64,000 nucleotides of DNA. Source: Camelus dromedarius. Taxonomy: Eukaryota. The position numbers and the translations under genes are program-made. The number at the start of each line of letters is the position of its first letter. Position 1 is the first letter of the stretch. The notes below the pieces were generated by a model that was not told the origin of the DNA, did not search any database, and was given only the letters and a program-made list of their open reading frames with translations. Shown here piece by piece: positions 2,991-64,000 of this stretch. The DNA lies in NCBI RefSeq assembly GCF_036321535.1, contig NC_087436.1, positions 2,108,001 to 2,172,000 on the forward strand, given 5' to 3'.

Positions 2991-3649
2991 TTTACTCTGG
3001 TTTCTCAGTCTTTTTCCTAGTGCCGGTTTGAAGTTCCTGCAATTTTCACTGTAAAACCGATTTGGAGCTGGTACCTCCCCATATATATGTATGGATTGGA
3101 GTTTGCAAGTGAAAAGTAACTTTGTATTCCCAAGAAGCTAGGTGAAGGACTGCTTTCACACACACTTATCTCTCAGAACAGAGCATGTGGAGAGACGTTC
3201 GTTCATCTAGCACAAAGGGAACGGTTTGCAGGAGAAACTTTTACTCTGGTATCTCAGTCTGTTTCCTAGTGCCGGTTTGAAGTTCCTGCCGTTTTCACTG
3301 TAAAACCGAGTTGTAGCTAGTACCTACCCATATATATGTATGGATTGGAGTTTGCAAGTGAAAAGAAACTTTGTGTTCCCAACAAGCTATGTGAAGGACG
3401 GCTTTCACACACACTTATCTCTCAGAACTTAGCATGTGGAGAGACTTTCGTTCATCTAGCACGAAGGGAATGGTTTACAGGAGAAACTTTTACTCTGGTT
3501 TCTCAGTCTGTTTCCATGTGCCGGTTTGAATTTCCTGCAGTTTTCACTGTAAAACCGATTTGGAGCTAGTACCTCCCCATAAATATGTATGGAGTGGAGT
3601 TTGCAACTGAAAAGAAACTTTGTGTTCCCAACAAGCTAGGTGAAGGACG

Positions 3650-6600: not shown

Positions 6601-6710
6601 AGAAACTTTGTGTTCCCAACAAGCTAGGTGAAGGGCAGCTTTCACACACACTTATCTCTCAGAACTGAGCATGTGGAGAGACGATCGTTCATCAAGCACA
6701 AAGGGAACGG
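3650..6710. repeat. 4-monomer HOR (996 bp), 3 copies
   Basis: 'caagcaatgttaagg' at ~3881, ~4877, ~5873 and 'tctaagaactcagc' at ~4416, ~5412, ~6408. Minus-strand ORF starts at 3887, 4883 and 5879 are offset by 996. Confidence 0.92.
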
Positions 6711-6899
6711 GTTGCAGGAGAAACTTTTACTCTGGATTCTCAGTCTGTTTCCTAGTGCCGGTTTGAAGTTCCTGCCGTTTTCACTGTAAAATCTTGATGG
6801 AGCTAGTACCTACCCATATATATGTATGGAATGGAGTTTGCAACTGAAAAGAAACTTTGTGTTCCCAACAAGCTAGGTGAAGGACGATTTTCACACACA

Positions 6900-40269: not shown

Positions 40270-43200
40270 GGGAACGGTTTGCAGGAGAAACTTTTACACA
40301 TTTTTCTCAGTCTGTTTCCTAGTGCCGTTTTGAAGTGCCTTCAGTTTTCACTGTAAAACACAGTTGGAGCTAGTACCTCCCCATATATATGTATGGAGTG
40401 GAGTTTGCAACTGAAAAGAAACTTTGTGTTCCCAACTAGCTTGGGGAAGGACGGATTTAACACACACTTATCTCTCAGAACTAAGCATGTGGAGAGACGT
40501 TCGTTCATTTAGCACAAAGGGAACGGGTTGCAAGTGAAACTTTTACTCTAGTTTCTCAGTCTGTTTCCTAGTGTCGGTTGAAGTTCCTGCAGTTTTCACT
40601 GTAAAACCGAGTTGGAGCTAGTACCTCCCCATATATATGTATGGATTGGAGTTTGCAACTGAAAAGAAACTTTGTGTTCCCTACAAGCTAGTTGAAGGAC
40701 GGCTTTCACACACACTTATCTCTCAGAACTGAGCATGTGGAGAAACGTTCGTTCATCTAGCACAAAGGGAACGGGTTGCAGGAGAAACTTTTACACTGGT
40801 TTCTCAGTCTGTTTCTTAGTGCCGGTTTGAAGATTCTGCAGTTTTCACGGTAAAACCGTGTTGGAGCTAGTACCTTCGCATATATATGTATGGATTGGAG
40901 TTTGCAAGTGAAAAGAAACTTTGTGTTCCCAACAAGCTAGGTGAAGGACGGCTTTCACACACACTTATCTCTCAGAACTGAGCATGTGGAGAGAAGTTCG
41001 TTCATCTAGCACAAAGGGAACGGGTTGCAGGAGAAACTTTTACAAATTTTTCTCAGTCTGTTTCCTAGTGCCGTTTTGAAGTGCCTTCAGTTTTCACTGT
41101 AAAACACAGTTGGAGCTAGTACCTCCCCATATATATGTATGGAGTGGAGTTTGCAACTGAAAAGAAACTTTGTGTTCCCAACAAGCTAGGGGAAGGACGG
41201 CTTTAACACACAATTATCTCTCAGAACTAAGCATGTGGAGAGACGTTCGTTCATCTAGCACAAAAGGAACGTGTTGCAGGTGAAACATTTTCTCTGGTTT
41301 CTCAGTCTGTTTCCTAGTGTCGGTTTGAAGTTCCTGCAGTTTTCACTGTAAAACCGAGTTGGAGCTAGTACCTCCCCATATATATGTATGGAGTGGAGTT
41401 TGCAACTGAAAAGAAACTTTGTGTTCCCAACAATCTAGTTGAAGGACGGCTTTCACACACACTTATCTCTCAGAACTGAGCATGTGGAGAGAAGTTCGTT
41501 CATGTAGCACAAAGGGAACGGGTTGCAGGGGAAACTTTTACTCTGGATTCTCAGTCTGTTTCCTAGTGTCGGTTAGAAGTTCCTGCAGTTTTCACTGTAA
41601 AACCGAGCTGGAGCTAGTACTTCCCCTTATATATGTATGGATTGGAGTTTGTAAGTGAAAAGAAACTTTGTGTTCCCAAGAAGCTAGGTGAAGGACGGCT
41701 TTCACACACACTTATCTCTCAGAACTGAGCATGTGGAGAGACGTTCGTTCATGTAGCACAAAGGGAACGGGTTGCAGGGGAAACTTTACTCTGGATTCTC
41801 AGTCTGTTTCCTAGTGTCGTTTTGAAGTTCCTGCAGTTTTCACTGTAAAACCGAGCTGGAGCTAGTACTTCCCCGTATATATGTATGGATTGGGGTTTGT
41901 AAGTGAAAAGAAACTTTGTGTTCCCAAGAAGCTAGGTGAAGGACGGCTTTCACACACAATTATCACTCAGAACTGAGCATGTGGAGAGACGTTCGTTCAT
42001 CTAGCACAAAGGGAACGGGTTGCAGGAGAAACTTTTACTCTGGTTTCTCAGTCTGTTTCCTAGTGCCGGTTGGAAGTTCCTGCAGTTTTCACTGTAAAAC
42101 CGAGTTGGAGCTAGTACCTCCCCATATATATGTATGGAGTGGAGTTTCCAACTGAAAAGAAACTTTGTGTTCCCGACAAGCTAGGTGAAGGACGGCTTTC
42201 ACACACAGTTATCTCTCAGAACTAAGCATTTGGAGAGACGTTCGTTCATCTAGCATAAAGGGAACCTGTTGCAGGAGAAACTTTTACTCTGGTTTCTCAG
42301 TCTGTTTCCTAGTGCCGGTTTGAAGTTCCTGCAAATTTCACTGTAAAACCGATTTGGAGCTAGTAACTCCCCATATATATGTATGGAGTGGAGTTTGCAA
42401 CTGAAAAGAAACTTTGTGTCCCCAACAAGCTAGGTGAAGGACGGCTTTCACACACACTTATCTCTCAGAACTGGGCAAGTGGAGAGACGTTCGTTCATCT
42501 AGCACAAAGTGAACGGGTTGCAAGAGAAACTTTTTCTCTGGTTTCTCATTCTGTTTCCTGTTGCCGGTTTAAAGTTCCTGCAATTTTCACTGTAAAACCG
42601 AGTTGGAGCATGTCCCTCCCCATATATATGTATGGATTGGAGTTTGCAACTGAAAGGAACTATGTGTTCCAAAGAAGCTAGGTGAAGGACGGCTTTCACA
42701 CACACTTATCTCTCAGAACTGAGCATGTGGAGAGAAGTTCGTTCATCTAGCACAAAGGGAACGGTTTGCAGGAGAAACTTTTACACATTTTTCTCAGTCT
42801 GTTTCCTAGTGCCGTTTTGAAGTGCCTTCAGTTTTCACTGTAAAACACAGTTGGAGCTAGTACCTCCCCATATATATGTATGGAGTGGAGTTTGCAACTG
42901 AAAAGAAACTTTGTGTTCCCAACTAGCTTGGGGAAGGACGGATTTAACACACACTTATCTCTCAGAACTAAGCATGTGGAGAGACGTTCGTTCATTTAGC
43001 ACAAAGGGAACGGGTTGCAAGTGAAACTTTTACTCTAGTTTCTCAGTCTGTTTCCTAGTGTCGGTTGAAGTTCCTGCAGTTTTCACTGTAAAACCGAGTT
43101 GGAGCTAGTACTTCCCCATATATATGTATGGATTGGAGTTTGCAACTGAAAAGAAACTTTGTGTTCCCTACAAGCTAGTTGAAGGACGGCTTTCACACAC

Positions 43201-43870
43201 ACTTATCTCTCAGAACTGAGCATGTGGAGAAACGTTCGTTCATCTAGCACAAAGGGAACGGGTTGCAGGAGAAACTTTTACTCTGGTTTCTCAGTCTGTT
43301 TCTTAGTGCCGGTTTGAAGATTCTGCAGTTTTCACGGTAAAAAAGTGTTGGAGCTAGTACCTTCGCATATATATGTATGGATTGGAGTTTGCAAGTGAAA
43401 AGAAACTTTGTGTTCCCAACAAGCTAGGTGAAGGACGGCTTTCACACACACTTATCTCTCAGAACTGAGCATGTGGAGAGAAGTTCGTTCATCTAGCACA
43501 AAGGGAACGGGTTGCAGGAGAAACTTTTACACATTTTTCTCAGTATGTTTCCTAGTGCCGTTTTGAAGTGCCTTCAGTTTTCACTGTAAAACACAGTTGG
43601 AGCTAGTACCTCCCCATATATATGTATGGAGTGGAGTTTGCAACTGAAAAGAAACTTTGTGTTCCCAACAAGCTAGGGGAAGGACGGCTTTAACACACAA
43701 TTATCTCTCAGAACTAAGCATGTGGAGAGACGTTCGTTCATCTAGCACAAAGGGAACGGGTTGCAGGTGAAACTTTTACTCTGGTTTCTCAGTCTGTTTC
43801 CTAGTGTCGGTTTGAAGTTCCTGCAGTTTTCACTGTAAAACCGAGTTGGAGCTAGTACCTCCCCATATAT
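40270..43870. repeat. 10-monomer HOR (~2487 bp), ~1.5 copies
   Basis: 'aactagcttggggaaggacggatttaac' at ~40434 and ~42921. 'gaagattctgcagttttcacgg' at ~40829 and ~43316. Confidence 0.85.
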
Positions 43871-46800
43871 ATGTATGGATTGGAGTTTGTAAGTGAAAAG
43901 AAACTTTGTGTTCCCAAGAAGCTAGGTGAAGTACGGCTTTCACACACACTTATCTCTCAGAACTGAGCATGTGGAGAGACGTTCGTTCATGTAGCACAAT
44001 GGGAACGGGTTGCAGGGGAAACTTTTACTCTGGATTCTCAGTCTGTTTCCAAGTGTCGTTTTGAAGTTCCTGCAGTTTTCACTGTAAAACCGAGCTGGAG
44101 CTAGTACTTCCCCGTATATATGTATGGATTGGAGTTTGTAAGTGAAAAGAATCTTTGTGTTCCCAAGAAGCTAGGTGAAGGACGGCTTTCACACTCACTT
44201 ATCTCTCAGAGCTGAGCATGTGGAGAGACGTTCGTTCACCTAGCACAAAGGGAACGGGTTGCAGGAGGAACTTTTACTCTGGTTTCTCATTCTGTTTCCT
44301 AGTGCAGGTTTGAAGTTCCTGCAATTTTCACTGTAAATCCGAGTTGGGGCTAGTACCTCCCCATATATATGGATGGATTGGAGTTCGCAACTGAAAAGAA
44401 ACTTTGTGTTCCCAACAAGCTAGGTGAAGGACGGCTTTCACACACACTTATCTCTCAGAACTGAGCATGTGGAGAGAAGTTCGTTCATCTAGCTCAAAGG
44501 GAACGGGTTGCAGGAGAAACTTTTACACATTTTTCTCAGTCTGTTTCCTAGTGCCGTTTTGAAGTGCCTTCAGTTTTCACTGTAAAACACAGTTGGAGCT
44601 AGTACCTCCCCATATATATGTATGGAGTGGAGTTTGCAACTGAAAAGAAACTTTGTGTTCCCAACAAGCTATGTGAAGGCGGCTTTCACACACACTTATC
44701 TCTCAGATCTGGGCAATTGGAGAGACGTTCGTTCATCTAGGAAAAAGTGAACGGTTTGCAGGAGAAATTTTTCTCTGGTTTCTCAGTCTGTTTCCAAGTG
44801 CCGGTTTGATGTTCCTGCAGTTTTCACTGTAAAACCGAGTTGGAGCTTGTACCTCCCCATGTATATGCATGGATTGGAGTTTGCATGTGAAAAGAAACTT
44901 TGTGTTCCCAACAAGCTAGGTGAAGGACGGCTTTCACACACACTTATCTCAGAACTGAGCATGTGGAGAGACGTTCGTTCACCTAGCAGAAAGGGAACGG
45001 GTTGCAGGAGAACCTTTTACTGTGGTTTCTCATTCTGTTTCCTAGTGCCGGTTTGAAGTTCCTGCAATTTTCACTGTAAATCCGAGTTGGGGCTAGTACC
45101 TCCCCATATATATGTATGGAGTGGAGTTTGCAACTGAAAAGAAACTGTGTTCCCAACAAGCTAGGTGAAGTACGGCTTTCACACACACTTATCTCTCAGA
45201 ACTGGGCAAATGGAGAGACGTTCGTTCATCTAGCACAAAGGGAACGGGTTGCAGGTGAAACATTTTCTCTGGTTTCTCAGTCTGTTTCCTGTTGCCGGTT
45301 TAAAGTTCCTGCAGTTTTCACTGTAAAACCGAGTTGGGGCTTGTACCACCCCATATATGTGTATGGATTGGAGTTTACACCTGAAAGGAACTTTGTGTTC
45401 CCAAGAAGCTAGGTGAAGGACGGCTTTCACACACACTTATCTCTCAGAACTGAGCATGTGGAGAGACGTTCGTTCATCTAGCCCAAAGGGAACGGGTTGC
45501 AGGGGAAACTTTTACTCTGGTTTCTCAGCCTGTTTCCTAGTGCCGGTTTGAAGTTCCTGAATTTTTCACTGTAAAACCGAGTTGGAGCTAGAACCACCGC
45601 ATATATATGTATGGATTGGAGTTTGCAAGTGAAAAGAAACTTTGTGTTCCCAACAAGCTAGATGAAGGACAGCTTTCACACACTACTTTCTCTCAGATCT
45701 GAGCATGTGGAGAGAAGTTCGTTCATCTAGCACAAAGGGAACGGGTTGCAGGAGAATCTTTTACTCTGGTTTCTCAGTCTGTTTCCTAGTGCCGGTTTGA
45801 AGTTCCTTCATTTTTCACTGTAAAACAGAGTTGGAGGTAGTACATTCCCATATATATGTATGAAGTGGAGTTTGCAACTGAAAAGAAAGTTTGTGTTCCC
45901 AACAAGCTAGGGGAAGGACGGCTTTCAAACACACTTATCTCTCAGAACTAAGCATGTGGAGAGACGTTCGTTCATCTAGCACAAAGGGAACGGGTTGCAG
46001 GAGAAACTTTTACTCTGGTTTCTCAGTGTTTTTCCCAGTGCCGGTTTGATGTTCCTGCAGTTTTCACTGTAAAACCGAGTTGGAGCTAGTACCTCCCCAT
46101 ATATATGTATGGATTGGAGTTTGCAAGTGAAAAGAAACTTTGTGTCCCAACAAGCTAGGTGAAGAACGGCTTTCACACACAGTTATCTCTCAGAACTGAG
46201 CATGTGGAGAGACGTTCGTTCACCTAGCAAAAAGGGAACGGGTTGCAGGAGAAACTTTTACTCTGGTTTCTCAGTCTGTTTCCTAGTGCCGGTTTGAAGT
46301 TCCTGCAATTTTCACTGTAAATCCGAGTTGGAGCTAGTACCTCCCCATATAAATGTATGGAGTGGAGTTAGCAACTGAAAAGAAACTTTGTGTTCCCAAC
46401 AAGCTAGGTGAAGGACGGCTTTCACACACACTTTTCTCTCAGAACTGGGCAAGTGGAGAGACGTTCGTTCATCTAGCACAAAGGGAACGGGTTGCAGGAG
46501 AAAGTATTTCTCTGGTTTGTCAGTCTGTTTCCTGTTGCCGATTTAAAGTTCCTGCAGTTTTCACTGTAAAACCGAGTTGGAGCTTGTTCCTCCCCATATA
46601 TGTGTATGGATTGGAGTTTGCACCTGAAAGGAAATTTGTGTTCACAACAAGCTAGGTGAAGGACGGCTTTCACACACACTTATCTCTCAGAACTGAGAAT
46701 GTGGAGAGACGTTCCTTCATCTAGACCAAAGGGAACGGGTTGCTGGAGAAACTTTTACTCTGGTTTCTCAGGCTGTTTCCTACTGCCGGTTTAAAGTTCC

Positions 46801-49800
46801 TGCATTTTTCACTGTAAAACTGAGATGGAGCTAGTACCTCCGCATATATATGTATGGATTGGAGTTTGCAAGTGAAAAGAAACTTTGTGTTCCCAACAAG
46901 CTAGGTGAAGGACGGCTTTCACACAGAGTTTCTCTCAGAATTGAGTATGTGGAGAGACGTTCGTTCATCTAGCACAAAGGGAACGGGTTGCAGGAGAAAC
47001 TTATACTCATTTATCTCAGTCTGTTTCCTAGTGCCGGTTTGATGTTCCTGCAGTTTTCACTGTAAAACCGAGTTGGGGCTAGTACCTCCCCATATATATG
47101 TATGGATTGGAGTTTTCAACTGAAAAGAAACTTTGTGTTCCCCAGAAGCTAGGTGAAGGACGGCTATCACACACATTTACCTCTCAGAACTGAGCATGTG
47201 GAGAGACGTTCGTTCATCTAGCACAAAGTGAGAGGGTGGCAGGAGAAACTTTTACTCTGGTTTCTCAGTCTGTTTCCTAGTGCCGGTTTGAAGTTTCTGC
47301 AGTTTTCACTGTAAAAAAGAGTTGGGGCTACTACCTCCCCATATATATGTATGGAGTGGAGTTTGCAACTGAGAAGAAACTTTGTGTTCCCAAGAAGCTA
47401 GGTGAAGGACGGCTTTCACACACACTTATCTCTCAGATCTGGGCAATTGGAGAGACGTTCGTTCATCTAGCACAAAGGGAACAGGTTGCAGGGGAAACTT
47501 TTTCTCTGGTTTCTCAGTCTGTTTCCTGTTGCCGGTATAAAGTTCCTGCAGTTTTCACTGTAAATCCGAATTGGAGCTTGTACCTCCCCATATATATGTA
47601 TGGATTGGAGTTTGCAACTTAATGGAACTTTGTGTTCCCAAGAAGCTAGGGGAAAGACGGCTTTCACACACACTTATCTCTCAGAACTGAGCATGTGGAG
47701 GGACGTTCGTTCATCTAGAACAAAGGGAACGGGTGGCAGGAGAAACTTTTACTCTGGTTTCTCAGTCTGTTTCCTAGTGCCGGTTTGAAGTTCCTGCAGT
47801 TTTCAGAGTAAAAAAAAGTTGGTGCTACAACCTCCCCATATATATGTATGGAGTGGAGTTTGCAACTGAAAAGAAACTTTGTGTTCCCAACAAGCAAGTT
47901 GAAGGACTGCTTTCACACACACTTTTCTCTCAGAACTGAGCATCTGGAGAGACGTTCGTTCATCTAGCAAAAAGGGAACGGGTTGCAGGAGAAACTTTTA
48001 CTCTGGTTTCTCAGTCTGTTTCCTAGTGCCTGTTTGAAGTTCCTGCAGTTTTCACTGTAAAACAGAGTTGGAGCTAGTACCTCCCCATATATATGTATGG
48101 AGTGGAGTTTGCAACTGAAAAGAAACTTTGTGTTCCCAACAAGCTAGGTGAAGGACGGCTTTCACACACAATTATCTCTCAGAACTGAGCTTGTGGAGAG
48201 ACTTTCGTTCATCTAGCACAAAGGAACGGGTTGCAGGAGAAACTTTTACTCATTTATCTCAGTCTGATTCCTAGTGCCGGTTTGAATTTCCTGCAGTTTT
48301 CACTGTAAAACCGAGTTGGGGCTAGTAACTCCCCATATATATGTATGGAGTGGAGTTTGCAACTGAAAAGATACTTTGAGTTCCCAACAATCTATGTGAA
48401 TGACAGCTTTCACACACACTTATCTCTCAGATCTGGGCAAGTGGAGAGACGTTCGTTCCTCTAGCACAAATGGAACGGGTTGCAAGAGAAACTTTTTCTC
48501 CGGTTTCTCAGTCTCTTTCCTGTTGCCGGTTTAAAGTTCCTACAGTTTTCACTGTAAAATCGAGTTGGAGCTCTTCCCTCCCGGTATATATATATGGATT
48601 GGAGTTTGCAATTGAAAGGAACTTTGTGTTCCCAAGAAGCTAGGTGAAGAACGGCTTTCACACACAATTATATCTCAGAACTGAGCATGTGGTGAGACTT
48701 TCGTTCATCTAGCACAAAGGGAACAGGTTGCAGGCGAAAATTTTACTCTCGTTTCTCTGTCTGATTCCTTGTGCCGGTTTGAAGTTCCTGCATTCTTAAC
48801 TGTAAAACAGATTTGGGGCTAGTACCTCCCCATATATATGTATGGAATGGAGTTTGCAACTGAAAAGAAACTTTGTGTTCCCAACAAGCTAGGGGAAGGA
48901 CGGCTTTCACACACACTTATCTCTCAGAACTGAGCATGTGGAGAGACGTTCGTTCATCTAGCACAAAGGGAACGGGTTGCAGGAGAAAATTTTACTCTGG
49001 TTTCTCAGTCTGATTCCTAGTGCCGGTTTGACGTTCCTGCAGTTTTAACTGTAAAACAGATTTGGGGCTAGTACCTCCCCATATATATGTATGGAATGGA
49101 AGTTGCAACTGAAAAGAAACTTAGTGTTCCCAACAAGCTAGGTGAAGGACGGCTTTCACACACACTTATCTCTCAGAACTCAGCATGTGGAGAGACGTTC
49201 GTTCATCTAGCACAAAGGGAACGGGTTGCAGGAGAAACTTTTACTCTGGTTTCTCAGTCTGTTTCCTAGTGCCGGTTTGAAGTTCCTGCAGTTTCCACTG
49301 TAAAAGACAGTTGGGGCTACTACCTCCCCTTATATATGTATGGAGTGGAGTTTGCAACTGAAAAGAAACTTTGTGTTCCCGACAAGCTAGGTGAAGGACG
49401 GCTTTCACACTCACTTATCTCTCAGATCTGGACAAGTGGAGAGACGTTCGTTCATCAAGCACAAAGGGAACGTGTTGCAAGAGAAACTTTTTCTCCGGTT
49501 TCTCAGTCTGTTTCCTGTTCCCGGTTTAAAGTTCCTGCAGTTTTCACTGTAAATCCGAGTTGGAGCTTCTCCCTCCCCATATATATATATGGATTGGAGT
49601 TTGCAACTGAAAGGAACTTTGTGTTCCCAAGAAGCTAGGTGAAGGACGGCTTTCACACACACTAATATCTCCGAACTGAGCATGTGGTGAGACTTTCGTT
49701 CATCTAGCACAAAGGGAAAGGTTTGCAGGAGAAACTTTTACTCTGGATTCTCAGTCTGTTTCCTAGTGCCGGTTTGAAGTTCCTGCAGTTTTCACAGTAA

Positions 49801-50729
49801 AACCGAGTTGGAGCTAGTACCTCCGCATATATATGTATTGATTGGAGATTGCAAGTGAAAAGAAACTTTGTGTTCCCAACAAGCTAGGTGAAGGACGGCT
49901 TTCACACACACTTATCTCTCAGAACTGAGCATGTGGAGGGACGTTTGTTCATCTAGCACAAAGGGAACGGGTTGCAGGAGAAACTTTTACTCATGTTTCT
50001 CAGTCTGTTTCCTAGTGCCGGTTTGAAGTTCCTGCAGTTTTCACTGTAAAACCGATTTGGGGCTAGTACCTCCCCATATATATGTATGGAGTTGAGTTTG
50101 CAACTGAAAAGAAACTTTGTGTTCCCAACAAGCTAGGTGAAGGACGGCTTTCACACACACTTATCTCTCAGAACTGAGCATGTGGAGAGACGTTCGTTCA
50201 TCTAACACAAAGGAAATGGGAGGCAGGAGAAACTTTTACTCTGGTTTCTCAGTCTGTTTCCTAGTGCCGGTTTGAAGTTCCTGCAGTTTTCACTGTAAAA
50301 CAGAGTTGGGGCTACTACCTCCCCTTATATATGTATGGAGTGGAGTTTGCAACTGAAAAGAAACTTTGTGTTCCCAACAAGCTAGGTGAAGGACGGCTTT
50401 CACACTCAGTTATCTCTCAGATCTGGACAAGTGGAGAGACGTTCGTTCATCTAGCACAAAGGGAACGGGTTGCAGGAGAAACATTTTCTATGGTTTCTCA
50501 GTTTGTTTCCTGTTGCCGGTATAAAGTTCCTGCAGTTTTCACTGTAAAACCGAGTTCGAGCTTGTACCTCACCATATATATGTATGGATTGGAGTTTGCA
50601 ACTTAAAGGAACTTTGTGATCCCAAGAAGCTAGGTGAAGGATGGCTTTCACACACACATATCTCTCAGAACTGAGCATGTGGAGAGACGTTCTTTCATCT
50701 AGCACAAAGTGAACGGTTTGCAGGAGAAA

Positions 50730-53240
50730 CTTTTACTCTGGTTTCTCAGTCTGTTTCCTAGTGCCGGTTTGAATTTCCTGCAGTTTTCACTGTAAAACAG
50801 AGTTGGAGCTAGTACCTACACATATATATGTATAGAGTGGAGTTTGCAACTGAAAAGAAACTTTGTGTTCCCAACAAGCTAGGTGAAGGACGGCTTTCAC
50901 ACACACTTATCTCTCAGAACTGAGCATGTGGAGAGACCTTCGTTCATCTAGCACAAATGGAACGGATTGCAGGATAAACTTTTACTCATTTTTCTCAGTC
51001 TGTTTCCTAGTGCCGGTTTGAAGTTCCTTCAGTTTTCACTGTAAAACCGAGTTGGAGCTAGTACCTCCCCATATATATGTATGGAGTGCAGTTTGCAACT
51101 GAAAAGAAACTTTGGGTTCCCAACAAGCCAGGGGAAGGACGGCTTCCACACACACTTATTTCTCAGAACTGAGCATGTGGAGAGACGTTCGTTCATCTAG
51201 CACAAATGGAACGGGTTGCAGGAGAAAATTTTACTCTGGTTTCTCAGTCTGTTTCCTAGTGCCGGTTTGAAGTTCCTGCAGTTTTCACTGTAAAACAGAG
51301 TTGGGGCTAGTACCTCCCCATATATATGTATGGAGTGGAGTTTGCTACTGAAAAGAAACTTTGTGTTCCCAACTAGCTAGTTGAATGACGGCTTTCACAC
51401 ACACTTATCTCTCAGAACTGAGCATGTGGAGAGACGTTCGTTCATCTAGCACAAAGGGAACGGGTTGCAGGGGAAACTTTTACTCTGGTTTCTCAGTCTG
51501 ATTCCTGTTGCCGGTTTGAAGTTCCTGCTGTTTTCACTGTAAAACCGAGTTGGAGCTAGTACCTCCCCATATATATGTATGGAGTTGAGTTTCAACTGAA
51601 AAGAAACTTTGTGTTCCCAACAAGCTAGGTGAAGGACGGCTTTCACACACACTTATCTCTCAGAACTGAGCATGTGGAGAGACGTTCGTTCATCTAGCAC
51701 AAAGGGAACATTTTGCAGGAGAAACTTTTACTCTGGTTCCTCAGTCTGTTTCCTAGTGCCGGTTTGAATTTCCTGCAGTTTTCACTGTAAAACAGAGTTG
51801 GAGCTAGTACCTAACCATATATATGTATGGAGTGGAGTTTGCAACTGAAAAGAAACTTTGTGTTCCCAACAAGCTAGGTGAAGGACGGCTTTCACACACA
51901 CTTATCTCTCAGAACTGAGCATGTGGAGAGACTTTCGTTCATCTAGCACAAAGGGAACGGGTTGCAGGAAAAACTTTTACTCATTTTTCTCAGTCTGTTT
52001 CCTAGGGCCGGTTTGAAGTTCCTTCAGTTTTCACTGTAAAACCGAGTTGGAGCTAGTACCTCCCCATATATATGTATGGAGTGGAGTTTGCAACTGAAAA
52101 GAATCTTTGTGTTCAAAACAAGCTAGGGGAAGGACGGCTTTCACACACACTTATCTCTCAGAACTGAGCATGTGGAGAGACGTTAGTTCATCTAGCACAA
52201 AGGGAACGGGATGCAGGAGAAAATTTTACTCTGGTTTCTCAGTCTGTTTCCTGTTGCCGGTTTAAAGTTCCTGCAGTTTTCACTGTAAAACCGGGTTGGA
52301 GCTTGTCCCTCCCCATATATATATATGGATTGGAGTATGCAACTGAAAGGAACTTTGTGTTCCCAAGAAGCTAGGTGAAGGACGGCTTTCACACACACTT
52401 ATATCTCAGAACTGAGCATGTGGAGAGACTTTCGTTCATCTAGCAAAAATGGAACGTGTTGCAGGAGAAACTTTTACTATGGTTTCTCAGTCTGTTTCCT
52501 ACTGCCGGTTTGAAGTTCCTGCAGTTTTCACTGTAAAACCGAGTTGGAGCAAGTACCTCCGCATATATATGTATGGATTGGAGTTTACAAGTGAAAAGAA
52601 TCTTTGTGTTCCCAACAAGCTAGGTAAAGGACGGCTTTCACACACAATTATCTCTCAGAACTGAGCATGTGGAGAGACGTTCGTTCATCTAGCACAAAGG
52701 GAACGGGTTGCAGGAGAAACATTAGTCTGGTTTCTCAGTCTGTTTCCTAGTGCCGGTAGGAATTTCCTGCAGTTTTCACTGTAAAACAGGGTTGGAGCTA
52801 GTACCTCCCCATATATATGTATGGAGTGGAGTTTGCAACTTAAAGAAACTTTGTGTTCCCAACAAGCTAGGTGAAGGACGACTTTCACACACACTTATCT
52901 CTCAGAACTGAGCATGTGGAGAGACTTTCGTTCATCTAGCACAAAGGGAACGGGTTGCAGGCGAAACTTTTACTCATTTTTCTCAGTCTGTTTCCTAGTG
53001 CCGGTTTGAAGTTCCTTCAGTTTTCACTGTAAAACCGAGTTGGAGCTAGTACCTCCCCATATATACGTATGGAATGGAGTTTGCAACTGAAAAGAAACTT
53101 TGTGTTCCCAACAAGCTAGGGGAAGGACGGCTTTCACACACACTTATCTCTCAGAACTGAGCATGTGGAGAGACGTTCGTTCATCTAGCACAAAGGGAAC
53201 GGGTTGCAGGAGAAAATTTTACTCTGGTTTCTCAGTCTGA
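50730..53240. repeat. Diverged 4-monomer HOR (~995 bp), ~2.5 copies
   Basis: 'aatttcctgc' at ~50772, ~51767, ~52761. 'actcatttttctcag...gttccttcag' at ~51024, ~52019, ~53012, each followed by 'ggggaagg'. Confidence 0.7.
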
Positions 53241-53259
53241 TTCCTAGTGCCGGTTTGAC

Positions 53260-56200
53260 GTTCCTGCAGTTTTAACTGTAAAACAGATTTGGGGCTAGTA
53301 CCTCCCCATATATATGTATGGAATGGAGGTTGCAACTGAAAAGAAACTTAGTCTTCCCAACAAGCTAGGTGAAGGACGGCTTTCACACACACTTATCTCT
53401 CAGAACTCAGCATGTTGCAAGACGTTCGTTCATCTAGCACAAAGGGAACGGGTTGCATGAGAAACTTTTACTCTGGTTTCTCAGTCTGTTTCCTAGTGCC
53501 GTTTTGAAGTTCCTGCAGTTTTCACTGTAAAACCGATTTGGGGCTAGTACCTCCCCATATATATGTATGGAGTGGAGTTTGCAACTGAAAAGAAACTTTG
53601 TGTTCCCAACAAGCTAGGTGAAGGACGGCTTTCACACACACTTATCTCTCAGAGCTGAGCATGTGGAGAGACGTTCGTTCATCTAGCACAAAGGGAACGG
53701 GAGGCAGGAGAAACTTTTACTCTGGTTTCTCAGTCTGTTTCCTAGTGCCGGTTTGAAGTTCCTGGAGTTTTCACTGTAAAAGACAGTTGGGGCTACTACC
53801 TCCCCTTATATATGTATGGAGTGGAGTTTGCAACTGAAAAGAAACTTTGTGTTCCCAACAAGCTAGGTGAAGGACGGCTTTCACACTCACTTATCTCTCA
53901 GATCTGGACAAGTGGAGAGACGTTCGTTCATCAAGCACAAAGGTAACGTGTTGCAGGAGAAACATTTTCTCTGGTCTCTCAGTCTGTTTCCTGTTGCCGG
54001 TATAAAGTTCCTGCAGTTTTCACTGTAAAACCGAGTTGGAGCTAGTACCTCCCCATATATATGTATGGAGTGGAGTTTGCAACTGAAAATAAACTTTTTG
54101 TTCCCAACAACTAGGGGAAGGACGGCTTTCACACACACTTATCTCTCAGAACTGAGCATGTGGAGAGACGTTCGTTCATCTAGCACAAAGGAACGGGTGG
54201 CAGGAGAAAATTTTACTCTGATTTCTCAGTCTGTTTCCTAGTGCCGGTTTGAAGTTCCTGCAGTTTTCACTTTAAAACAGAGTTGGGGCTAGTACCTCCG
54301 CATATATATGTATGGAGTTGGGTTTGCAACTGAAAAGAAACTTTGTGTTCCCAACTAGATAGTTGAAGGACGGCTTGCACACACACTTATCTCTCAGATC
54401 TGGGCAAGTGGAGAGACGTTCGTTCATCTAGCACAAAGGGAACGGGTTGCAGGAGAAACTTTTACACATTTTTCTCAGTCTGTTTCCTAGTGCCGTTTTG
54501 AAGTGCCTTCAGTTTTCACTGTAAAACACAGTTGGAGCTAGTACCTCCCCATATATATGTATGGAGTGGAGTTTGCAACTGAAAAGAAACTTTGTGTTCC
54601 CAACTAGCTTGGGGAAGGACGGATTTAACACACACTTATCTCTCAGAACTAAGCATGTGGAGAGACGTTCGTTCATTTAGCACAAAGGGAACGGGTTGCA
54701 AGTGAAACGTTTACTCTAGTTTCTCAGTCTGTTTCCTAGTGTCGGTTGAAGTTCCTGCAGTTTTCACTGTAAAACCGAGTTGGAGCTAGTACCTCCCCAT
54801 ATATATGTATGGATTGGAGTTTGCAACTGAAAAGAAACTTTGTGTTCCCTACAAGCTAGTTGAAGGACGGCTTTCACACACACTTATCTCTCAGAACTGA
54901 GCATGTGGAGAAACGTTCGTTCATCAAGCACAAAGGGAACGGGTTGCAGGAGAAACTTTTACACTGTTTTCTCAGTCTGTTTCTTAGTGCCGGTTTGAAG
55001 ATTCTGCAGTTTTCACGGTAAAACCGTGTTGGAGCTAGTACCTTAGCATATATATGTATGGATTGGAGTTTGCAAGTGAAAAGAAACTTTGTGTTCCCAA
55101 CAAGCTAGGTGAAGGACGGCTTTCACACACACTTATCTCTCAGAACTGAGCATGTGGAGAGAAGTTCGTTCATCTAGCACAAAGGGAACGGGTTGCAGGA
55201 GAAACTTTTACAAATTTTTCTCAGTCTGTTTCCTAGTGCCGTTTTGAAGTGCCTTCAGTTTTCACTGTAAAACACAGTTGGAGCTAGTACCTCCCCATAT
55301 ATATGTATGGAGTGGAGTTTGCAACTGAAAAGAAACTTTGTGTTCCCAACAAGCTAGGGGAAGGACGGCTTTAACACACAATTTTCTCTCAGAACTAAGC
55401 ATGTGGAGAGACGTTCGTTCATCTAGCACAAAGGGAACGGGTTGCAGGTGAAACTTTTTCTCTGGTTTCTCAGTCTGTTTCCTAGTGTCGGTTTGAAGTT
55501 CCTGCAGTTTTCACTGTAAAACCGAGTTGGAGCTAGTACCTCCCCATATATATGTATGGAGTGGAGTTTGCAACTGAAAAGAAACTTTGTGTTCCCAACA
55601 AGCTAGTTGAAGGACGGCTTTCACACACACTTATCTCTCAGAACTGAGCATGTGGAGAGAAGTTCGTTCATGTAGCACAAAGGGAACGGGTTGCAGGGGA
55701 AACTTTTACTCTGGATTCTCAGTCTGTTTCGTAGTGTCGGTTAGAAGTTCCTGCAGTTTTCACTGTAAAACCGAGCTGGAGCTAGTACTTCCCCTTATAT
55801 ATGTATGGAGTGGAGTTTGCAACTGAAAAGAAACTTTGTGTTCCCAACAAGCTAGTTGAAGGACGGCTTTCACACACACTTATCTCTCAGAACTGAGCAT
55901 GTGGAGAGAAGTTCGTTCATGTAGCACAAAGGGAACGGGTTGCAGGGGAAACTTTTACTCTGGATTCTCAGTCTGTTTCGTAGTGTCGGTTAGAAGTTCC
56001 TGCAGTTTTCACTGTAAAACCGAGCTGGAGCTAGTACTTCCCCTTATATATGTATGGATTGGAGTTTGTAAGTGAAAAGAAACTTTGTGTTCCCAAGAAG
56101 CTAGGTGAAGGACGGCTTTCACACACACTTATCTCTCAGAACTGGGCAAGTGGAGAGACGTTCGTTCATCTAGCACAAAGGGAACGGGTTGCAGGAGAAA

Positions 56201-59200
56201 CTTTTTCTCTGGTTTCTCATTCTGTTTCCTGTTGCCGGTTTAAAGTTCCTGCAATTTTCACTGTAAAACCGAGTTGGAGCATGTCCCTCCCCATATATAT
56301 GTATGGATTGGAGTTTGCAACTGAAAGGAACTATGTGTTCCAAAGAAGCTAGGTGAAGGACGGCTTTCACACACACTTATCTCTCAGAACTGAGCATGTG
56401 GAGAGAAGTTCGTTCATCTAGCACAAAGGGAACGGTTTGCAGGAGAAACTTTTACACATTTTTCTCAGTCTGTTTCCTAGTGCCGTTTTGAAGTGCCTTC
56501 AGTTTTCACTGTAAAACACAGTTGGAGCTAGTACCTCCCCATATATATGTATGGAGTGGAGTTTGCAACTGAAAAGAAACTTTGTGTTCCCAACAAGCTA
56601 GGGGAAGGACGGCTTTAACACACAATTTTCTCTCAGAACTAAGCATGTGGAGAGACGTTCGTTCATCTAGCACAAAGGGTACGGGTTGCAGGTGAAACTT
56701 TTTCTCTGGTTTCTCAGTCTGTTTCCTAGTGTCGGTTTGAAGTTCCTGCAGTTTTCACTGTAAAACCGAGTTGGAGCTAGTACCTCCCCATATATATGTA
56801 TGGAGTGGAGTTTGCAACTGAAAAGAAACTTTGTGTTCCCAACAAGCTAGTTGAAGGACGGCTTTCACACACACTTATCTCTCAGAACTGAGCATGTGGA
56901 GAGAAGTTCGTTCATGTAGCACAAAGGGAACGGGTTGCAGGGGAAACTTTTACTCTGGATTCTCAGTCTGTTTCGTAGTGTCGGTTAGAAGTTCCTGCAG
57001 TTTTCACTGTAAAACCGAGCTGGAGCTAGTACTTCCCCTTATATATGTATGGATTGGAGTTTGTAAGTGAAAAGAAACTTTGTGTTCCCAAGAAGCTAGG
57101 TGAAGGACGGCTTTCACACACACTTATCTCTCAGAACTGGGCAAGTGGAGAGACGTTCGTTCATCTAGCACAAAGTGAACGGGTTGCAAGAGAAACTTTT
57201 TCTCTGGTTTCTCATTCTGTTTCCTGTTGCCGGTTTAAAGTTCCTGCAATTTTCACTGTAAAACCGAGTTGGAGCATGTCCCTCCCCATATATATGTATG
57301 GATTGGAGTTTGCAACTGAAAGGAACTATGTGTTCCAAAGAAGCTAGGTGAAGGACGGCTTTCACACACACTTATCTCTCAGAACTGAGCATGTGGAGAG
57401 AAGTTCGTTCATCTAGCACAAAGGGAACGGGTTGCAGGAGAAACTTTTACACATTTTTCTCAGTCTGTTTCCTAGTGCCGTTTTGAAGTGCCTTCAGTTT
57501 TCACTGTAAAACACAGTTGGAGCTAGTACCTCCCCATATATATGTATGGAGTGGAGTTTGCAACTGAAAAGAAACTTTGTGTTCCCAACAAGCTAGGGGA
57601 AGGACGGCTTTAACACACAATTTTCTCTCAGAACTAAGCATGTGGAGAGACGTTCGTTCATCTAGCACAAAGGGAACGGGTTGCAGGTGAAACTTTTTCT
57701 CTGGTTTCTCAGTCTGTTTCCTAGTGTCGGTTTGAAGTTCCTGCAGTTTTCACTGTAAAACCGAGTTGGAGCTAGTACCTCCCCATATATATGTATGGAG
57801 TGGAGTTTGCAACTGAAAAGAAACTTTGTGTTCCCAACAAGCTAGTTGAAGGACGGCTTTCACACACACTTATCTCTCAGAACTGAGCATGTGGAGAGAA
57901 GTTCGTTCATGTAGCACAAAGGGAACGGGTTGCAGGGGAAACTTTTACTCTGGATTCACAGACTGTTTCGTAGTGTCGGTTAGAAGTTCCTGCAGTTTTA
58001 ACTGTAAAACAGATTTGGGGCTAGTACCTCCCCATATATATGTATGGAATGGAGGTTGCAACTGAAAAGAAACTTAGTCTTCCCAACAAGCTAGGTGAAG
58101 GACGGCTTTCACACACACTTATCTCTCAGAACTCAGCATGTTGCAAGACGTTCGTTCATCTAGCACAAAGGGAACGGGTTGCATGAGAAACTTTTACTCT
58201 GGTTTCTCAGTCTGTTTCCTAGTGCCGTTTTGAAGTTCCTGCAGTTTTCACTGTAAAACCGATTTGGGGCTAGTACCTCCCCATATATATGTATGGAGTG
58301 GAGTTTGCAACTGAAAAGAAACTTTGTGTTCCCAACAAGCTAGGTGAAGGACGGCTTTCACACACACTTATCTCTCAGAGCTGAGCATGTGGAGAGACGT
58401 TCGTTCATCTAGCACAAAGGGAACGGGAGGCAGGAGAAACTTTTACTCTGGTTTCTCAGTCTGTTTCCTAGTGCCGGTTTGAAGTTCCTGGAGTTTTCAC
58501 TGTAAAAGACAGTTGGGGCTACTACCTCCCCTTATATATGTATGGAGTGGAGTTTGCAACTGAAAAGAAACTTTGTGTTCCCAACAAGCTAGGTGAAGGA
58601 CGGCTTTCACACTCACTTAACTCTCAGATCTGGACAAGTGGAGAGACGTTCGTTCATCAAGCACAAAGGTAACGTGTTGCAGGAGAAACATTTTCTCTGG
58701 TCTCTCAGTCTGTTTCCTGTTGCCGGTATAAAGTTCCTGCAGTTTTCACTGTAAAACCGAGTTGGAGCTAGTACCTCCCCATATATATGTATGGAGTGGA
58801 GTTTGCAACTGAAAAGAAACTTTGTGTTCCCAACAACTAGGGGAAGGACGGCTTTCACACACACTTATCTCTCAGAACTGAGCATGTGGAGAGACGTTCG
58901 TTCATCTAGCACAAAGGAACGGGTGGCAGGAGAAAATTTTACTCTGATTTCTCAGTCTGTTTCCTAGTGCCGGTTTGAAGTTCCTGCAGTTTTCACTTTA
59001 AAACAGAGTTGGGGCTAGTACCTCCGCATATATATGTATGGAGTTGGGTTTGCAACTGAAAAGAAACTTTGTGTTCCCAACTAGATAGTTGAAGGACGGC
59101 TTGCACACACACTTATCTCTCAGATCTGGGCAAGTGGAGAGACGTTCGTTCATCTAGCACAAAGGGAACGGGTTGCAGGAGAAACTTTTACACATTTTTC

Positions 59201-60520
59201 TCAGTCTGTTTCCTAGTGCCGTTTTGAAGTGCCTTCAGTTTTCACTGTAAAACACAGTTGGAGCTAGTACCTCCCCATATATATGTATGGAGTGGAGTTT
59301 GCAACTGAAAAGAAACTTTGTGTTCCCAACTAGCTTGGGGAAGGACGGATTTAACACACACTTATCTCTCAGAACTAAGCATGTGGAGAGACGTTCGTTC
59401 ATTTAGCACAAAGGGAACGGGTTGCAAGTGAAACGTTTACTCTAGTTTCTCAGTCTGTTTCCTAGTGTCGGTTGAAGTTCCTGCAGTTTTCACTGTAAAA
59501 CCGAGTTGGAGCTAGTACCTCCCCATATATATGTATGGATTGGAGTTTGCAACTGAAAAGAAACTTTGTGTTCCCTACAAGCTAGTTGAAGGACGGCTTT
59601 CACACACACTTATCTCTCAGAACTGAGCATGTGGAGAAACGTTCGTTCATCAAGCACAAAGGGAACGGGTTGCAGGAGAAACTTTTACACTGTTTTCTCA
59701 GTCTGTTTCTTAGTGCCGGTTTGAAGATTCTGCAGTTTTCACGGTAAAACCGTGTTGGAGCTAGTACCTTAGCATATATATGTATGGATTGGAGTTTGCA
59801 AGTGAAAAGAAACTTTGTGTTCCCAACAAGCTAGGTGAAGGACGGCTTTCACACACACTTATCTCTCAGAACTGAGCATGTGGAGAGAAGTTCGTTCATC
59901 TAGCACAAAGGGAACGGGTTGCAGGAGAAACTTTTACAAATTTTTCTCAGTCTGTTTCCTAGTGCCGTTTTGAAGTGCCTTCAGTTTTCACTGTAAAACA
60001 CAGTTGGAGCTAGTACCTCCCCATATATATGTATGGAGTGGAGTTTGCAACTGAAAAGAAACTTTGTGTTCCCAACAAGCTAGGGGAAGGACGGCTTTAA
60101 CACACAATTTTCTCTCAGAACTAAGCATGTGGAGAGACGTTCGTTCATCTAGCACAAAGGGAACGGGTTGCAGGTGAAACTTTTTCTCTGGTTTCTCAGT
60201 CTGTTTCCTAGTGTCGGTTTGAAGTTCCTGCAGTTTTCACTGTAAAACCGAGTTGGAGCTAGTACCTCCCCATATATATGTATGGAGTGGAGTTTGCAAC
60301 TGAAAAGAAACTTTGTGTTCCCAACAAGCTAGTTGAAGGACGGTTTCACACACACTTATCTCTCAGAACTGAGCATGTGGAGAGAAGTTCGTTCATGTAG
60401 CACAAAGGGAACGGGTTGCAGGGGAAACTTTTACTCTGGATTCTCAGTCTGTTTCGTAGTGTCGGTTAGAAGTTCCTGCAGTTTTCACTGTAAAACCGAG
60501 CTGGAGCTAGTACTTCCCCT
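53260..60520. repeat. 19-monomer duplication (4726-bp offset)
   Basis: 'aacttagtcttccc' and 'catgttgcaagacg' at ~53345-53425 recur at ~58071-58150. ORFs 53887 and 58613 are offset by 4726. Confidence 0.9.
55950..57990. repeat. Homogeneous 4-monomer HOR (995 bp), 2 copies
   Basis: ORFs 56050/57045 and 56170/57165 are offset by 995. Same diagnostic variants as the terminal 4-mer. Confidence 0.9.
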
Positions 60521-63500
60521 TATATATGTATGGATTGGAGTTTGTAAGTGAAAAGAAACTTTGTGTTCCCAAGAAGCTAGGTGAAGGACGGCTTTCACAC
60601 ACACTTATCTCTCAGAACTGTGCAAGTGGAGAGACGTTCGTTCATCTAGCACAAATTGAACGGGTTGCAAGAGAAACTTTTTCTCTGGTTTCTCATTCTG
60701 TTTCCTGTTGCCGGTTTAAAGTTCCTGCAATTTTCACTGTAAAACCGAGTTGGAGCATGTCCCTCCCCATATATATGTATGGATTGGAGTTTGCAACTGA
60801 AAGGAACTATGTGTTCCAAAGAAGCTAGGTGAAGGACGGCTTTCACACACACTTATCTCTCAGAACTGAGCATGTGGAGAGAAGTTCGTTCATCTAGCAC
60901 AAAGGGAACGGGTTGCAGGAGAAACTATTACACATTTTTCTCAGTCTGTTTCCTAGTGCCGTTTTGAAGTGCCTTCAGTTTTCACTGTAAAACACAGTTG
61001 GAGCTAGTACCTCCCCATATATATGTATGGAGTGGAGTTTGCAACTGAAAAGAAACTTTGTGTTCCCAACAAGCTAGGGGAAGGACGGCTTTAACACACA
61101 ATTTTCTCTCAGAACTAAGCATGTGGAGAGACGTTCGTTCATCTAGCACAAAGGGAACGGGTTGCAGGTGAAACTTTTTCTCTGGTTTCTCAGTCTGTTT
61201 CCTAGTGTCGGTTTGAAGTTCCTGCAGTTTTCACTGTAAAACCGAGTTGGAGCTAGTACCTCCCCATATATATGTATGGAGTGGAGTTTGCAACTGAAAA
61301 GAAACTTTGTGTTCCCAACAAGCTAGTTGAAGGACGGCTTTCACACACACTTATCTCTCAGAACTGAGCATGTGGAGAGAAGTTCGTTCATGTAGCACAA
61401 AGGGAACGGGTTGCAGGGGAAACTTTTACTCTGGATTCTCAGTCTGTTTCGTAGTGTCGGTTAGAAGTTCCTGCAGTTTTCACTGTAAAACCGAGCTGGA
61501 GCTAGTACTTCCCCTTATATATGTATGGATTGGAGTTTGTAAGTGAAAAGAAACTTTGTGTTCCCAAGAAGCTAGGTGAAGGACGGCTTTCACACACACT
61601 TATCTCTCAGAACTGGGCAAGTGGAGAGACGTTCGTTCATCTAGCACAAAGGGAACGGGTTGCAGGAGAAACTTTTTCTCTGGTTTCTCATTCTGTTTCC
61701 TGTTGCCGGTTTAAAGTTCCTGCAATTTTCACTGTAAAACCGAGTTGGAGCATGTCCCTCCCCATATATATGTATGGATTGGAGTTTGCAACTGAAAGGA
61801 ACTATGTGTTCCAAAGAAGCTAGGTGAAGGACGGCTTTCACACACACTTATCTCTCAGAACTGAGCATGTGGAGAGAAGTTCGTTCATCTAGCACAAAGG
61901 GAACGGTTTGCAGGAGAAACTTTTACACATTTTTCTCAGTCTGTTTCCTAGTGCCGTTTTGAAGTGCCTTCAGTTTTCACTGTAAAACACAGTTGGAGCT
62001 AGTACCTCCCCATATATATGTATGGAGTGGAGTTTGCAACTGAAAAGAAACTTTGTGTTCCCAACAAGCTAGGGGAAGGACGGCTTTAACACACAATTTT
62101 CTCTCAGAACTAAGCATGTGGAGAGACGTTCGTTCATCTAGCACAAAGGGAACGGGTTGCAGGTGAAACTTTTTCTCTGGTTTCTCAGTCTGTTTCCTAG
62201 TGTCGGTTTGAAGTTCCTGCAGTTTTCACTGTAAAACCGAGTTGGAGCTAGTACCTCCCCATATATATGTATGGAGTGGAGTTTGCAACTGAAAAGAAAC
62301 TTTGTGTTCCCAACAAGCTAGTTGAAGGACGGCTTTCACACACACTTATCTCTCAGAACTGAGCATGTGGAGAGAAGTTCGTTCATGTAGCACAAAGGGA
62401 ACGGGTTGCAGGGGAAACTTTTACTCTGGATTCTCAGTCTGTTTCGTAGTGTCGGTTAGAAGTTCCTGCAGTTTTCACTGTAAAACCGAGCTGGAGCTAG
62501 TACTTCCCCTTATATATGTATGGATTGGAGTTTGTAAGTGAAAAGAAACTTTGTGTTCCCAAGAAGCTAGGTGAAGGACGGCTTTCACACACACTTATCT
62601 CTCAGAACTGGGCAAGTGGAGAGACGTTCGTTCATCTAGCACAAAGTGAACGGGTTGCAAGAGAAACTTTTTCTCTGGTTTCTCATTCTGTTTCCTGTTG
62701 CCGGTTTAAAGTTCCTGCAATTTTCACTGTAAAACCGAGTTGGAGCATGTCCCTCCCCATATATATGTATGGATTGGAGTTTGCAACTGAAAGGAACTAT
62801 GTGTTCCAAAGAAGCTAGGTGAAGGACGGCTTTCACACACACTTATCTCTCAGAACTGAGCATGTGGAGAGAAGTTCGTTCATCTAGCACAAAGGGAACG
62901 GGTTGCAGGAGAAACTTTTACACATTTTTCTCAGTCTGTTTCCTAGTGCCGTTTTGAAGTGCCTTCAGTTTTCACTGTAAAACACAGTTGGAGCTAGTAC
63001 CTCCCCATATATATGTATGGAGTGGAGTTTGCAACTGAAAAGAAACTTTGTGTTCCCAACAAGCTAGGGGAAGGACGGCTTTAACACACAATTTTCTCTC
63101 AGAACTAAGCATGTGGAGAGACGTTCGTTCATCTAGCACAAAGGGAACGGGTTGCAGGTGAAACTTTTTCTCTGGTTTCTCAGTCTGTTTCCTAGTGTCG
63201 GTTTGAAGTTCCTGCAGTTTTCACTGTAAAACCGAGTTGGAGCTAGTACCTCCCCATATATATGTATGGAGTGGAGTTTGCAACTGAAAAGAAACTTTGT
63301 GTTCCCAACAAGCTAGTTGAAGGACGGCTTTCACACACACTTATCTCTCAGAACTGAGCATGTGGAGAGAAGTTCGTTCATGTAGCACAAAGGGAACGGG
63401 TTGCAGGGGAAACTTTTACTCTGGATTCTCAGTCTGTTTCGTAGTGTCGGTTAGAAGTTCCTGCAGTTTTCACTGTAAAACCGAGCTGGAGCTAGTACTT

Positions 63501-64000
63501 CCCCTTATATATGTATGGATTGGAGTTTGTAAGTGAAAAGAAACTTTGTGTTCCCAAGAAGCTAGGTGAAGGACGGCTTTCACACACACTTATCTCTCAG
63601 AACTGGGCAAGTGGAGAGACGTTCGTTCATCTAGCACAAAGTGAACGGGTTGCAAGTGAAACTTTTTCTCTGGTTTCTCATTCTGTTTCCTGTTGCTGGT
63701 TTAAAGTTCCTGCAATTTTCACTGTAAAACCGAGTTGGAGCATGTCCCTCCCCATATATATGTATGGATTGGAGTTTGCAACTGAAAGGAACTATGTGTT
63801 CCAAAGAAGCTAGGTGAAGGACGGCTTTCACACACACTTATCTCTCAGAACTGAGCATGTGGAGAGAAGTTCGTTCATCTAGCACAAAGGGAACGGGTTG
63901 CAGGAGAAACTTTTACACATTTTTCTCAGTCTGTTTCCTAGTGCCGTTTTGAAGTGCCTTCAGTTTTCACTGTAAAACACAGTTGGAGCTAGTACCTCCC
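59930..64000. repeat. Homogeneous 4-monomer HOR (995 bp), at least 4 copies, running off the window end
   Basis: ORFs 60526, 61521, 62516 and 63511 are each offset by 995 with near-identical translations. Diagnostic variants are 'gtttcgtagtgtcggttaga', 'catgtccctc' and 'actatgtgttccaaagaag'. Confidence 0.95.

Follow-up and report, generated by a model that had tools for sequence, protein, structure and literature searches.

A four-monomer unit of 995 bp in a 249-bp satellite array and its probable origin by exchange between monomers

Results and Discussion

The satellite array and its terminal 4-mer

The sequence under study, referred to as the window, is a stretch of 64,000 nucleotides from Camelus dromedarius (contig NC_087436.1, positions 2,108,001 to 2,172,000). 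It is a single uninterrupted array of a 249-bp satellite, returned by Tandem Repeats Finder (TRF) as one row with a period of 249 and 257.4 copies. Near the end of the window, the array carries a run of a 995-bp unit made of four monomers (the 4-mer), whose origin is the subject of this work. In the initial annotation, this unit had been derived from an upstream row of ten monomers, M1–M10, by two deletions of three monomers each, with ancestor, intermediates and product preserved in that order along the array. The window was split into 256 whole monomers (249–63908), which were indexed from 0 and scored against the majority consensus of the array; their mean pairwise divergence is 9.7%. The positions of all features are collected in Table 1.

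Table 1. Features of the satellite array, in window coordinates.
Feature	Position	Strand	Basis or detail
249-bp satellite array	1..64000	+	TRF, monomer split and distances
M1–M10, upstream sister copy of the source block	40290..42776	+	monomers 161–170
Partial second 10-mer copy: M1'–M4', M5/M6-type hybrid (43772), M7-type hybrid (44021)	42777..44269	+	distances, switch patterns
Probable start junction of the long copy (offset of ~57 monomers)	52966..53214	+	5' part resembles monomers 204/208, 3' part 156/195
Block copy 1 (19 monomers): P1–P5, M1–M4, B, C/B, C, D, A, B, C, D, A, B	53215..57940	+	class string; offset 19, then 22
C/B hybrid (M6-type 5', M5-type 3'), monomer 223	55702..55950	+	breakpoint at monomer positions 95–108
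Junction monomer 232 of the 22-monomer tandem duplication (C 5', P1 3')	57941..58189	+	breakpoint at monomer positions 46–59
Left flank of block copy 2: P2–P5, M1–M3	58190..59929	+	monomers 214–222 vs 233–241
4-mer run: units at 59930 (M4 first), 60924, 61919 and 62914, partial unit from 63909	59930..64000	+	0.2–0.8% between units
Likeliest M1'-to-M4 junction interval, unit 3	61929..62065	+	137 identical bp, M1' vs downstream M4; one site
M6/M9 deletion breakpoint interval, unit 3 (C monomer at 62417)	62564..62610	+	monomer positions 148–194

The 995-bp period prevails between 60001 and 64000, and the terminal 4-mer of the initial annotation is real. It has the form of a minimal higher-order repeat (HOR), with four head-to-tail units (59930–63908) that differ by 0.2–0.8% from one another, against about 19–33 of 249 sites between the classes within a unit, as judged from the distances to M4, M5, M6 and M10. 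The second unit is a variant at the end of its third and fourth monomers. The monomers were named A, B, C and D, and their nearest classes are M4 for A (4 differences, against 7 to M1), M5 for B (2 differences), M6 for C (8 differences) and M10 for D (0–2 differences). The proposed descent from the M1–M10 family is borne out by these assignments, as is the nearly intact state of M5 and M10 in the unit.

The third monomer carries the clearest trace of its origin. At the 22 sites that distinguish M6 from M9, C follows M6 at the first 15 and M9 at the last 7, with one private change (30G). It shows 8 mismatches to the best single parent and 1 to the M6/M9 hybrid; M6 and M9 are the sole best pair of parents among the 213 upstream monomers, and the fit was matched in none of 2000 column shuffles. 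The breakpoint falls within 47 identical bp (41681–41727 in M6 and 42427–42473 in M9), and the two diagnostic motifs were found where they had been annotated, at ~41650 and ~42472. In trees of half monomers, built on a selection of 44, three C copies had their right half grouped with M9 (support 97/87), and the left half was placed with M6 by distances only (1 difference, with at least 4 to the others). The fusion of M6 to M9 thus passed the switch-point test proposed for it, and C is, on solid grounds, a true M6/M9 hybrid monomer in the sense of HORmon. Furthermore, C has 42A, which upstream is found in M6 alone (1/213). This places the 4-mer in the M1–M10 lineage rather than among the older relatives at 28106–35319.

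The proposed M1/M4 hybrid, A, has a weaker signature. M1 and M4 are paralogues, and a single site (position 10) tells them apart within their first 147 bases. At that site A agrees with M1, and at the remaining 7 it agrees with downstream M4, as the hybrid would, with 1 mismatch. Nevertheless, this fit was equalled in 1330 of 2000 shuffles, and A is a candidate hybrid. The nearest upstream monomer to A is the second M4 copy (M4', 43523), with 2 differences. Since 181T is common to A and downstream M4, and B is identical to downstream M5 and not to the monomer after M4', the unit is contiguous within a single M4..M10–M1' copy.

Regarding the passage from D to A, all ten M10-type monomers with a whole successor are followed by an M1/M4-type start, five of them upstream, which makes D-to-A an old adjacency. 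Downstream, five D monomers have a whole successor, and in no case is it a full M1; the sixth D is cut by the end of the window. A 7-mer is thus never present as two whole tandem copies, as a HOR would be. Since the window holds no tandem 7-mer, the second deletion of the initial annotation, from M1 to M4, would have had no substrate, and the M10-to-M4 junction is most simply a tandem duplication of four monomers; of the two deletions, the one joining M6 to M9 remains. Judged from the D copies without 238T, the junction may lie anywhere from position 148 of D to position 147 of A. This change is a poor marker because it is widespread (36/256 monomers), and it also varies between monomer 160 and its copies. 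In the variant unit (C monomers at 55951 and 61422), two M9 changes are missing at the end of C, which looks like the result of a short conversion patch.

The upstream M1–M10 block

The row of ten monomers had been taken as the ancestral HOR. Only monomers 161–164 recur at an offset of 10 (42777–43771), with 0, 1, 3 and 4 differences between M1'–M4' and M1–M4, and they are followed by two hybrids. The 10-mer is accordingly present in about 1.4 near-identical copies, short of two whole tandem ones. Homology to the downstream region begins three monomers before M1 (39545–40289), with monomers 158–165 matching 215–222 and 234–241, which indicates that a longer segment was copied and not a 10-mer unit.

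Upstream and downstream blocks diverge by 0.62–0.76%. Among the non-consensus private changes of nine compared monomers, 9 are found upstream only and 5 are common to the downstream blocks only. With private changes on both sides, the upstream M1–M10 is a sister copy of the source and not its unchanged ancestor, and its ancestral role was not upheld. The monomer at 52966 is the probable start junction of the long copy; as a hybrid it fits with 1 mismatch, and the best single parent leaves 8.

The M5/M6 hybrids at 43772–44020 and 55702–55950 are mirror images of each other and switch in the same 14-bp interval (positions 95–108). The AT-rich near-palindrome in this interval was considered as a hot spot of breakpoints and rejected, since the largest pile-up comprised 6 of 16 intervals (P = 0.36) in an uncurated list that included mirror-image calls.

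Duplication of a 22-monomer block

The 19 monomers of block copy 1 lead into a C/P1 monomer at 57941, after which the classes continue as P2–P5 M1 M2 M3 M4 B C D A B C D A B C D A B C D. The C/P1 monomer follows C at 7 sites and P1 at the next 22, with 2 private changes. Such a clean hybrid identifies it as the junction of a tandem duplication. Comparing the two copies, monomers 214–222 and 233–241 (offset 19) show 4 differences over nine monomers, and monomers 224–231 and 246–253 (offset 22) show 1 difference over eight. For 224–231, an offset of 18 gave 10 differences, and an offset of 26 gave 6 differences over 6 monomers. The offset shifts from 19 to 22 exactly at monomer 223 (55702), which follows C at 7 sites and B at the next 12 with no private change. 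Since this jump of three coincides with a clean C/B hybrid, the simplest reading is that 22 monomers were duplicated and that copy 1 later lost three; the hybrid at 55702 would then be the scar of a three-monomer deletion in the 4-mer run of copy 1.

The copies differ at 5 sites over 17 monomers (0.12%), and the duplicated block already contained the 4-mer unit three times in full and a fourth time in part. Since the units themselves differ by 0.2–0.8%, the block duplication is the youngest large event, and the visible expansion of the 4-mer is largely older.

These results change the reading of the two stretches (~54460–56450 and ~59185–60920) that had been described as intermediates retaining M1–M4 and already carrying the M6/M9 fusion. 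They are not independent, being copies of the same 22-monomer block. The first (54458–56447) does not have the described composition either, since it spans eight monomers and includes the previously unreported M6/M5 hybrid at 55702. The second consists of M1–M3 plus the first 4-mer unit. Between them (56448–58189) lie one and a half 4-mer units and the junction monomer, which contradicts the supposed succession of ancestor, intermediate and product along the array. The supposed 7-mer intermediate is a left flank plus a first unit, the usual leftover of any tandem duplication.

Expansion and abundance of the unit

The 4-mer forms the longest short-period run in the window, with 4.0 units against 2.0 in the first 213 monomers at an equal threshold. 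Runs of at least four units never arose in a toy simulation with size parameters borrowed from Arabidopsis as long as events were uniform (0/120 and 0/120); a bias of exchange toward identical sequence produced them in 1, 6 and 8 of 120 simulations. These model results lend some support to the 4-mer as a self-reinforcing, self-amplifying unit. Self-reinforcing expansion is what unequal-exchange models, reportedly those of Smith (1976), predict.

The abundance of the unit was evaluated by comparing four of 23 listed read runs with the array piece at 40440–42776, at 98% identity. Two of them, X22 and X23, are raw read sets of an organism carrying this satellite, possibly of another species, individual or haplotype than the window. 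In the contig sets X15 and X1, with listed pieces of at most 60 bases, 15 of 100 joints included no M6-to-M9 joint and 40 of 64 rows did not include the sites specific to the 4-mer (M4 181, M6 30), and neither result carries information. The 249-bp family is abundant in both, with 0.43–0.44% of letters on the 2.3-kb piece at ≥98% identity, and the depth of the most consensus-like bin is about 12,600–12,900. In a bin specific to M10 (42546–42623), the depth was 9.3 (X22) and 8.9 (X23). At position 75 of M6, it was 1 and 4, respectively, with 8 and 5 at a similar M7 site. Over the 3' part of M1, which is absent from the 4-mer, it was 11.5 and 10.9. Hence, in these sets, monomers retained in the 4-mer are not enriched over monomers lost from it. 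About ten recruiting monomers of the window would give an expected depth of 6–10 at the M6 and M10 sites, assuming a genome of 2–3 Gb, so the observed depths are approximately what the window alone would provide. With depths of 1–9 at these sites and about 12,000 in consensus-like bins, the 4-mer unit is not dominant in those two samples.

In addition, 85 of the 965 31-mers of the 4-mer unit (8.8%) are absent from 1–52900, and in 20 read runs holding the satellite a fraction of 0.81–0.88 of 92 sampled words was present. These values fit a unit that is private, and prove nothing in that respect. It is rather improbable, in our estimate, that the end of the window is the edge of a young, haplotype-private and homogeneous 995-bp array of tens to hundreds of kilobases, with its genealogy contained within 25 kb. 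If it were so, the locus would record, with a date and at base resolution, how a HOR arose in a non-primate mammal, in a satellite with no described HOR structure, and it would be amenable to population and CENP-A tests.

Proposed history and alternatives

The 4-mer is best explained, with a probability of roughly 0.68, as a short local higher-order duplication produced by register-preserving homologous exchange between monomers, through one deletion, one duplication junction, gains favored by identity and then a larger block duplication. The exchange could have been unequal sister exchange or template switching. Initially, a long segment with P3–P5, M1–M10 and M1' would have been copied about 57 monomers downstream; the homology is directly visible, and the tandem nature of the copy and its start at 52966 are presumed. 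In the new copy, a three-monomer deletion within the 47 bp of identity would have joined M6 to M9, giving the hybrid C that is observed. An exchange from the M1' after M10 back to M4, in 137 bp of identity, would have produced a tandem M4-B-C-D plus A, a step proposed on parsimony. The near-identical units could then have favored in-register gains up to the at least four units that are counted, if exchange is indeed biased toward identity, and short conversion-like patches may have given rise to the variant second unit. Afterwards, a 22-monomer block (flank plus at least three units) would have been duplicated in tandem, as the junction at 57941 attests. Finally, copy 1 would have lost three monomers, which would account for the C/B hybrid at 55702 and the jump in offset if the change was a loss. 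Neutral turnover of the array is the likeliest process behind it.

Several observations weigh against this history. Duplication and deletion junctions give identical sequence, and the choice between them is made by parsimony and by the lack of a tandem 7-mer in the window. A single site supports the A junction. Four of the six D copies are without 238T, and their right half is then identical to that of M3, which makes an M10/M3 junction possible. In the half-monomer tree, the left half of C falls in an unresolved fork with M6. The 4-mer run is cut by the end of the window. Lastly, even with the bias the simulation seldom reached four units (at most 8/120), and the window was chosen for this feature.

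The alternative closest to the initial annotation is that the M6/M9 deletion gave a 7-mer, which became a tandem 7-mer and then suffered a second three-monomer deletion, from M1 to M4, leaving the 4-mer that was amplified. It is unlikely, even though it produces the same junction sequences, agrees with the arithmetic 10 − 3 − 3 = 4, and accords with A being without the 10A of downstream M4 in all five whole copies and in the partial one. However, it requires one more event as well as the tandem 7-mer missing from the window. Moreover, both 7-mer-like stretches belong to copies of one block, with P1–P5 and 4-mer units between them, and the second 10-mer copy could not have served as substrate, since M4' is followed there by an M5/M6 hybrid and not by B.

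Alternatively, a deletion could have joined the 5' part of M10 to M3', placing D beside M4', which is without 10A, and a later M4'-to-M4 duplication would have started the run. The common D has a right half identical to M3 and M3', and, with M4' as the upstream monomer nearest to A, one donor would cover both absences. This route is nonetheless at long odds, since it takes one event more than the preferred explanation and 238T must be regained in the variant D, although 238T itself, being so common, is a poor marker.

Satellite arrays are prone to misassembly, and the two block copies differ at so few sites that an assembly error joining haplotypes or reads in tandem over a true array of one block might be suspected. 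This is very unlikely. Besides substitutions, the copies are distinguished by an indel of three monomers that is in register and has left a clean hybrid as its scar; the junction monomer, likewise a clean hybrid, has private changes of its own; and similar near-identical blocks occur throughout the window. The C hybrid and the four-unit run would be unaffected either way.

Comparison with known systems

Origin by exchange between monomers, as preferred here, has precedents in other satellites. In human alpha satellite, out-of-register deletions that leave hybrid monomers are part of the HOR nomenclature, as in a pentamer reduced to 1-2/3-4-5 (PMC6447721), and the HORmon paper cites the hypothesis that hybrid monomers seed new frequent monomers (PMC9248890). 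The camel 4-mer resembles these HOR variants in being a shorter unit made by out-of-register deletion with a hybrid monomer (PMC6447721, PMC9248890). It is also similar to the pseudo HORs defined as occasional re-amplifications (PMC6447721), with a homogeneous piece, divergent monomers within the unit and a diverged array around it. In contrast to canonical human HORs, which count hundreds to thousands of copies (cenX edges >1500), it is set in a patchwork array and counts about four units in tandem. Furthermore, the array differs from primate alpha satellite in its period, 249 and not 171 bp, and in the CENP-B box core, for which no match was found on either strand of the window.

In Arabidopsis mutation-accumulation lines, all 56 large indels of the CEN178 satellite were period-preserving, with deletions of 1–18 units and insertions of 1–31; many left new hybrid units at the breakpoints, and the mean length of conversion tracts was 58.5 bp; simulations in that study found such events sufficient for homogenized blocks (10.1101/2025.06.02.657473). 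In the present array, the events of 3, 4 and 22 monomers, as well as the variant unit, fit these classes. The 57-monomer copy is beyond the mutation-accumulation range and near the 13.7-kb maximum of the HPG1 set. On the other hand, CEN178 is another satellite in another kingdom, and its events were seen over generations, whereas those described here are deduced from one sequence.

The mechanism is thus already described in human and Arabidopsis centromeres, and the 4-mer is a local expansion of a unit to about four copies in the window, most likely ordinary array turnover and not a takeover by a new dominant repeat. Since hybrid-monomer HOR variants belong to the human nomenclature and the event types were directly observed in Arabidopsis, little of this would surprise specialists. 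If the preferred explanation is true, the locus is a worked example of known turnover rules. It also illustrates that linear order is no guide to the history of deletions and duplications, given that a flank plus a first unit mimics an intermediate. The locus would carry greater weight only if the 4-mer unit seeds a large array.

Regarding the 249-bp family itself, the literature searched gave no description of the monomer, with thin coverage of subscription papers, and the family may be a major satellite that has so far escaped description or indexing. Describing it may be worth more than the 4-mer locus. PaB6 of Prospero autumnale also has a 249-bp monomer and a similar G+C content (44%, against 42–44% in the window), and differs in having seven TTAGGG per monomer (PMC4273535). 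Kinship to PaB6 was ruled out, as the window consensus has no TTAGGG and both PaB6 primers matched the window no better than shuffles did. The same was found for four primers of the centromere-mapping alpaca satellites VpaSat05, 06 and 07. The accessible part of the alpaca satellite paper reports non-centromeric units of 1.8–8.5 kb and does not mention 249 (PMC13751797).

Recent duplications along the array

Recent duplication is the rule in this array. A partner at ≤3 differences was found for 105 of the 213 upstream monomers, 28 diagonal runs of at least three near-identical monomers were listed for the window, and the recent tandem duplications upstream have offsets of 4, 6, 13, 11 and 8 monomers.

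Another unit of four monomers (996 bp) is present in three copies at 3735–6722, a 4-mer birth of a like kind at the opposite end of the window. In this unit, monomers 18–21 and 22–25 show 2 differences, and the copy formed by 14–17 is older (6–8 differences per monomer). At 15432–25118, a 13-monomer tandem duplication (61–73 to 74–86, 5 differences over 13 monomers) is accompanied by an extra partial copy at 23380–25118. The 11- and 8-monomer duplications at 27111–35816 include older relatives of M6–M10 (about 2% away) and of M1–M2, which points to several rounds of duplication of the M family.

The region 44270–53214 has few near-identical partners and a loose rhythm of 2–4 monomers, with recurrences at 497 and 995 bp; monomers with 195G 199A come first, followed by monomers with 7T 32G 33T 43A, hinting at an older short-period HOR underneath the recent duplications. 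At the start of the window (1–9710), a length of 249 bp is constant over the first 39 whole monomers, which share 238T and 97A, variants that are rare further on, and 248-bp monomers start only at 10209. This uniformity followed by the later onset of 248-bp monomers suggests a boundary between two sequence layers.

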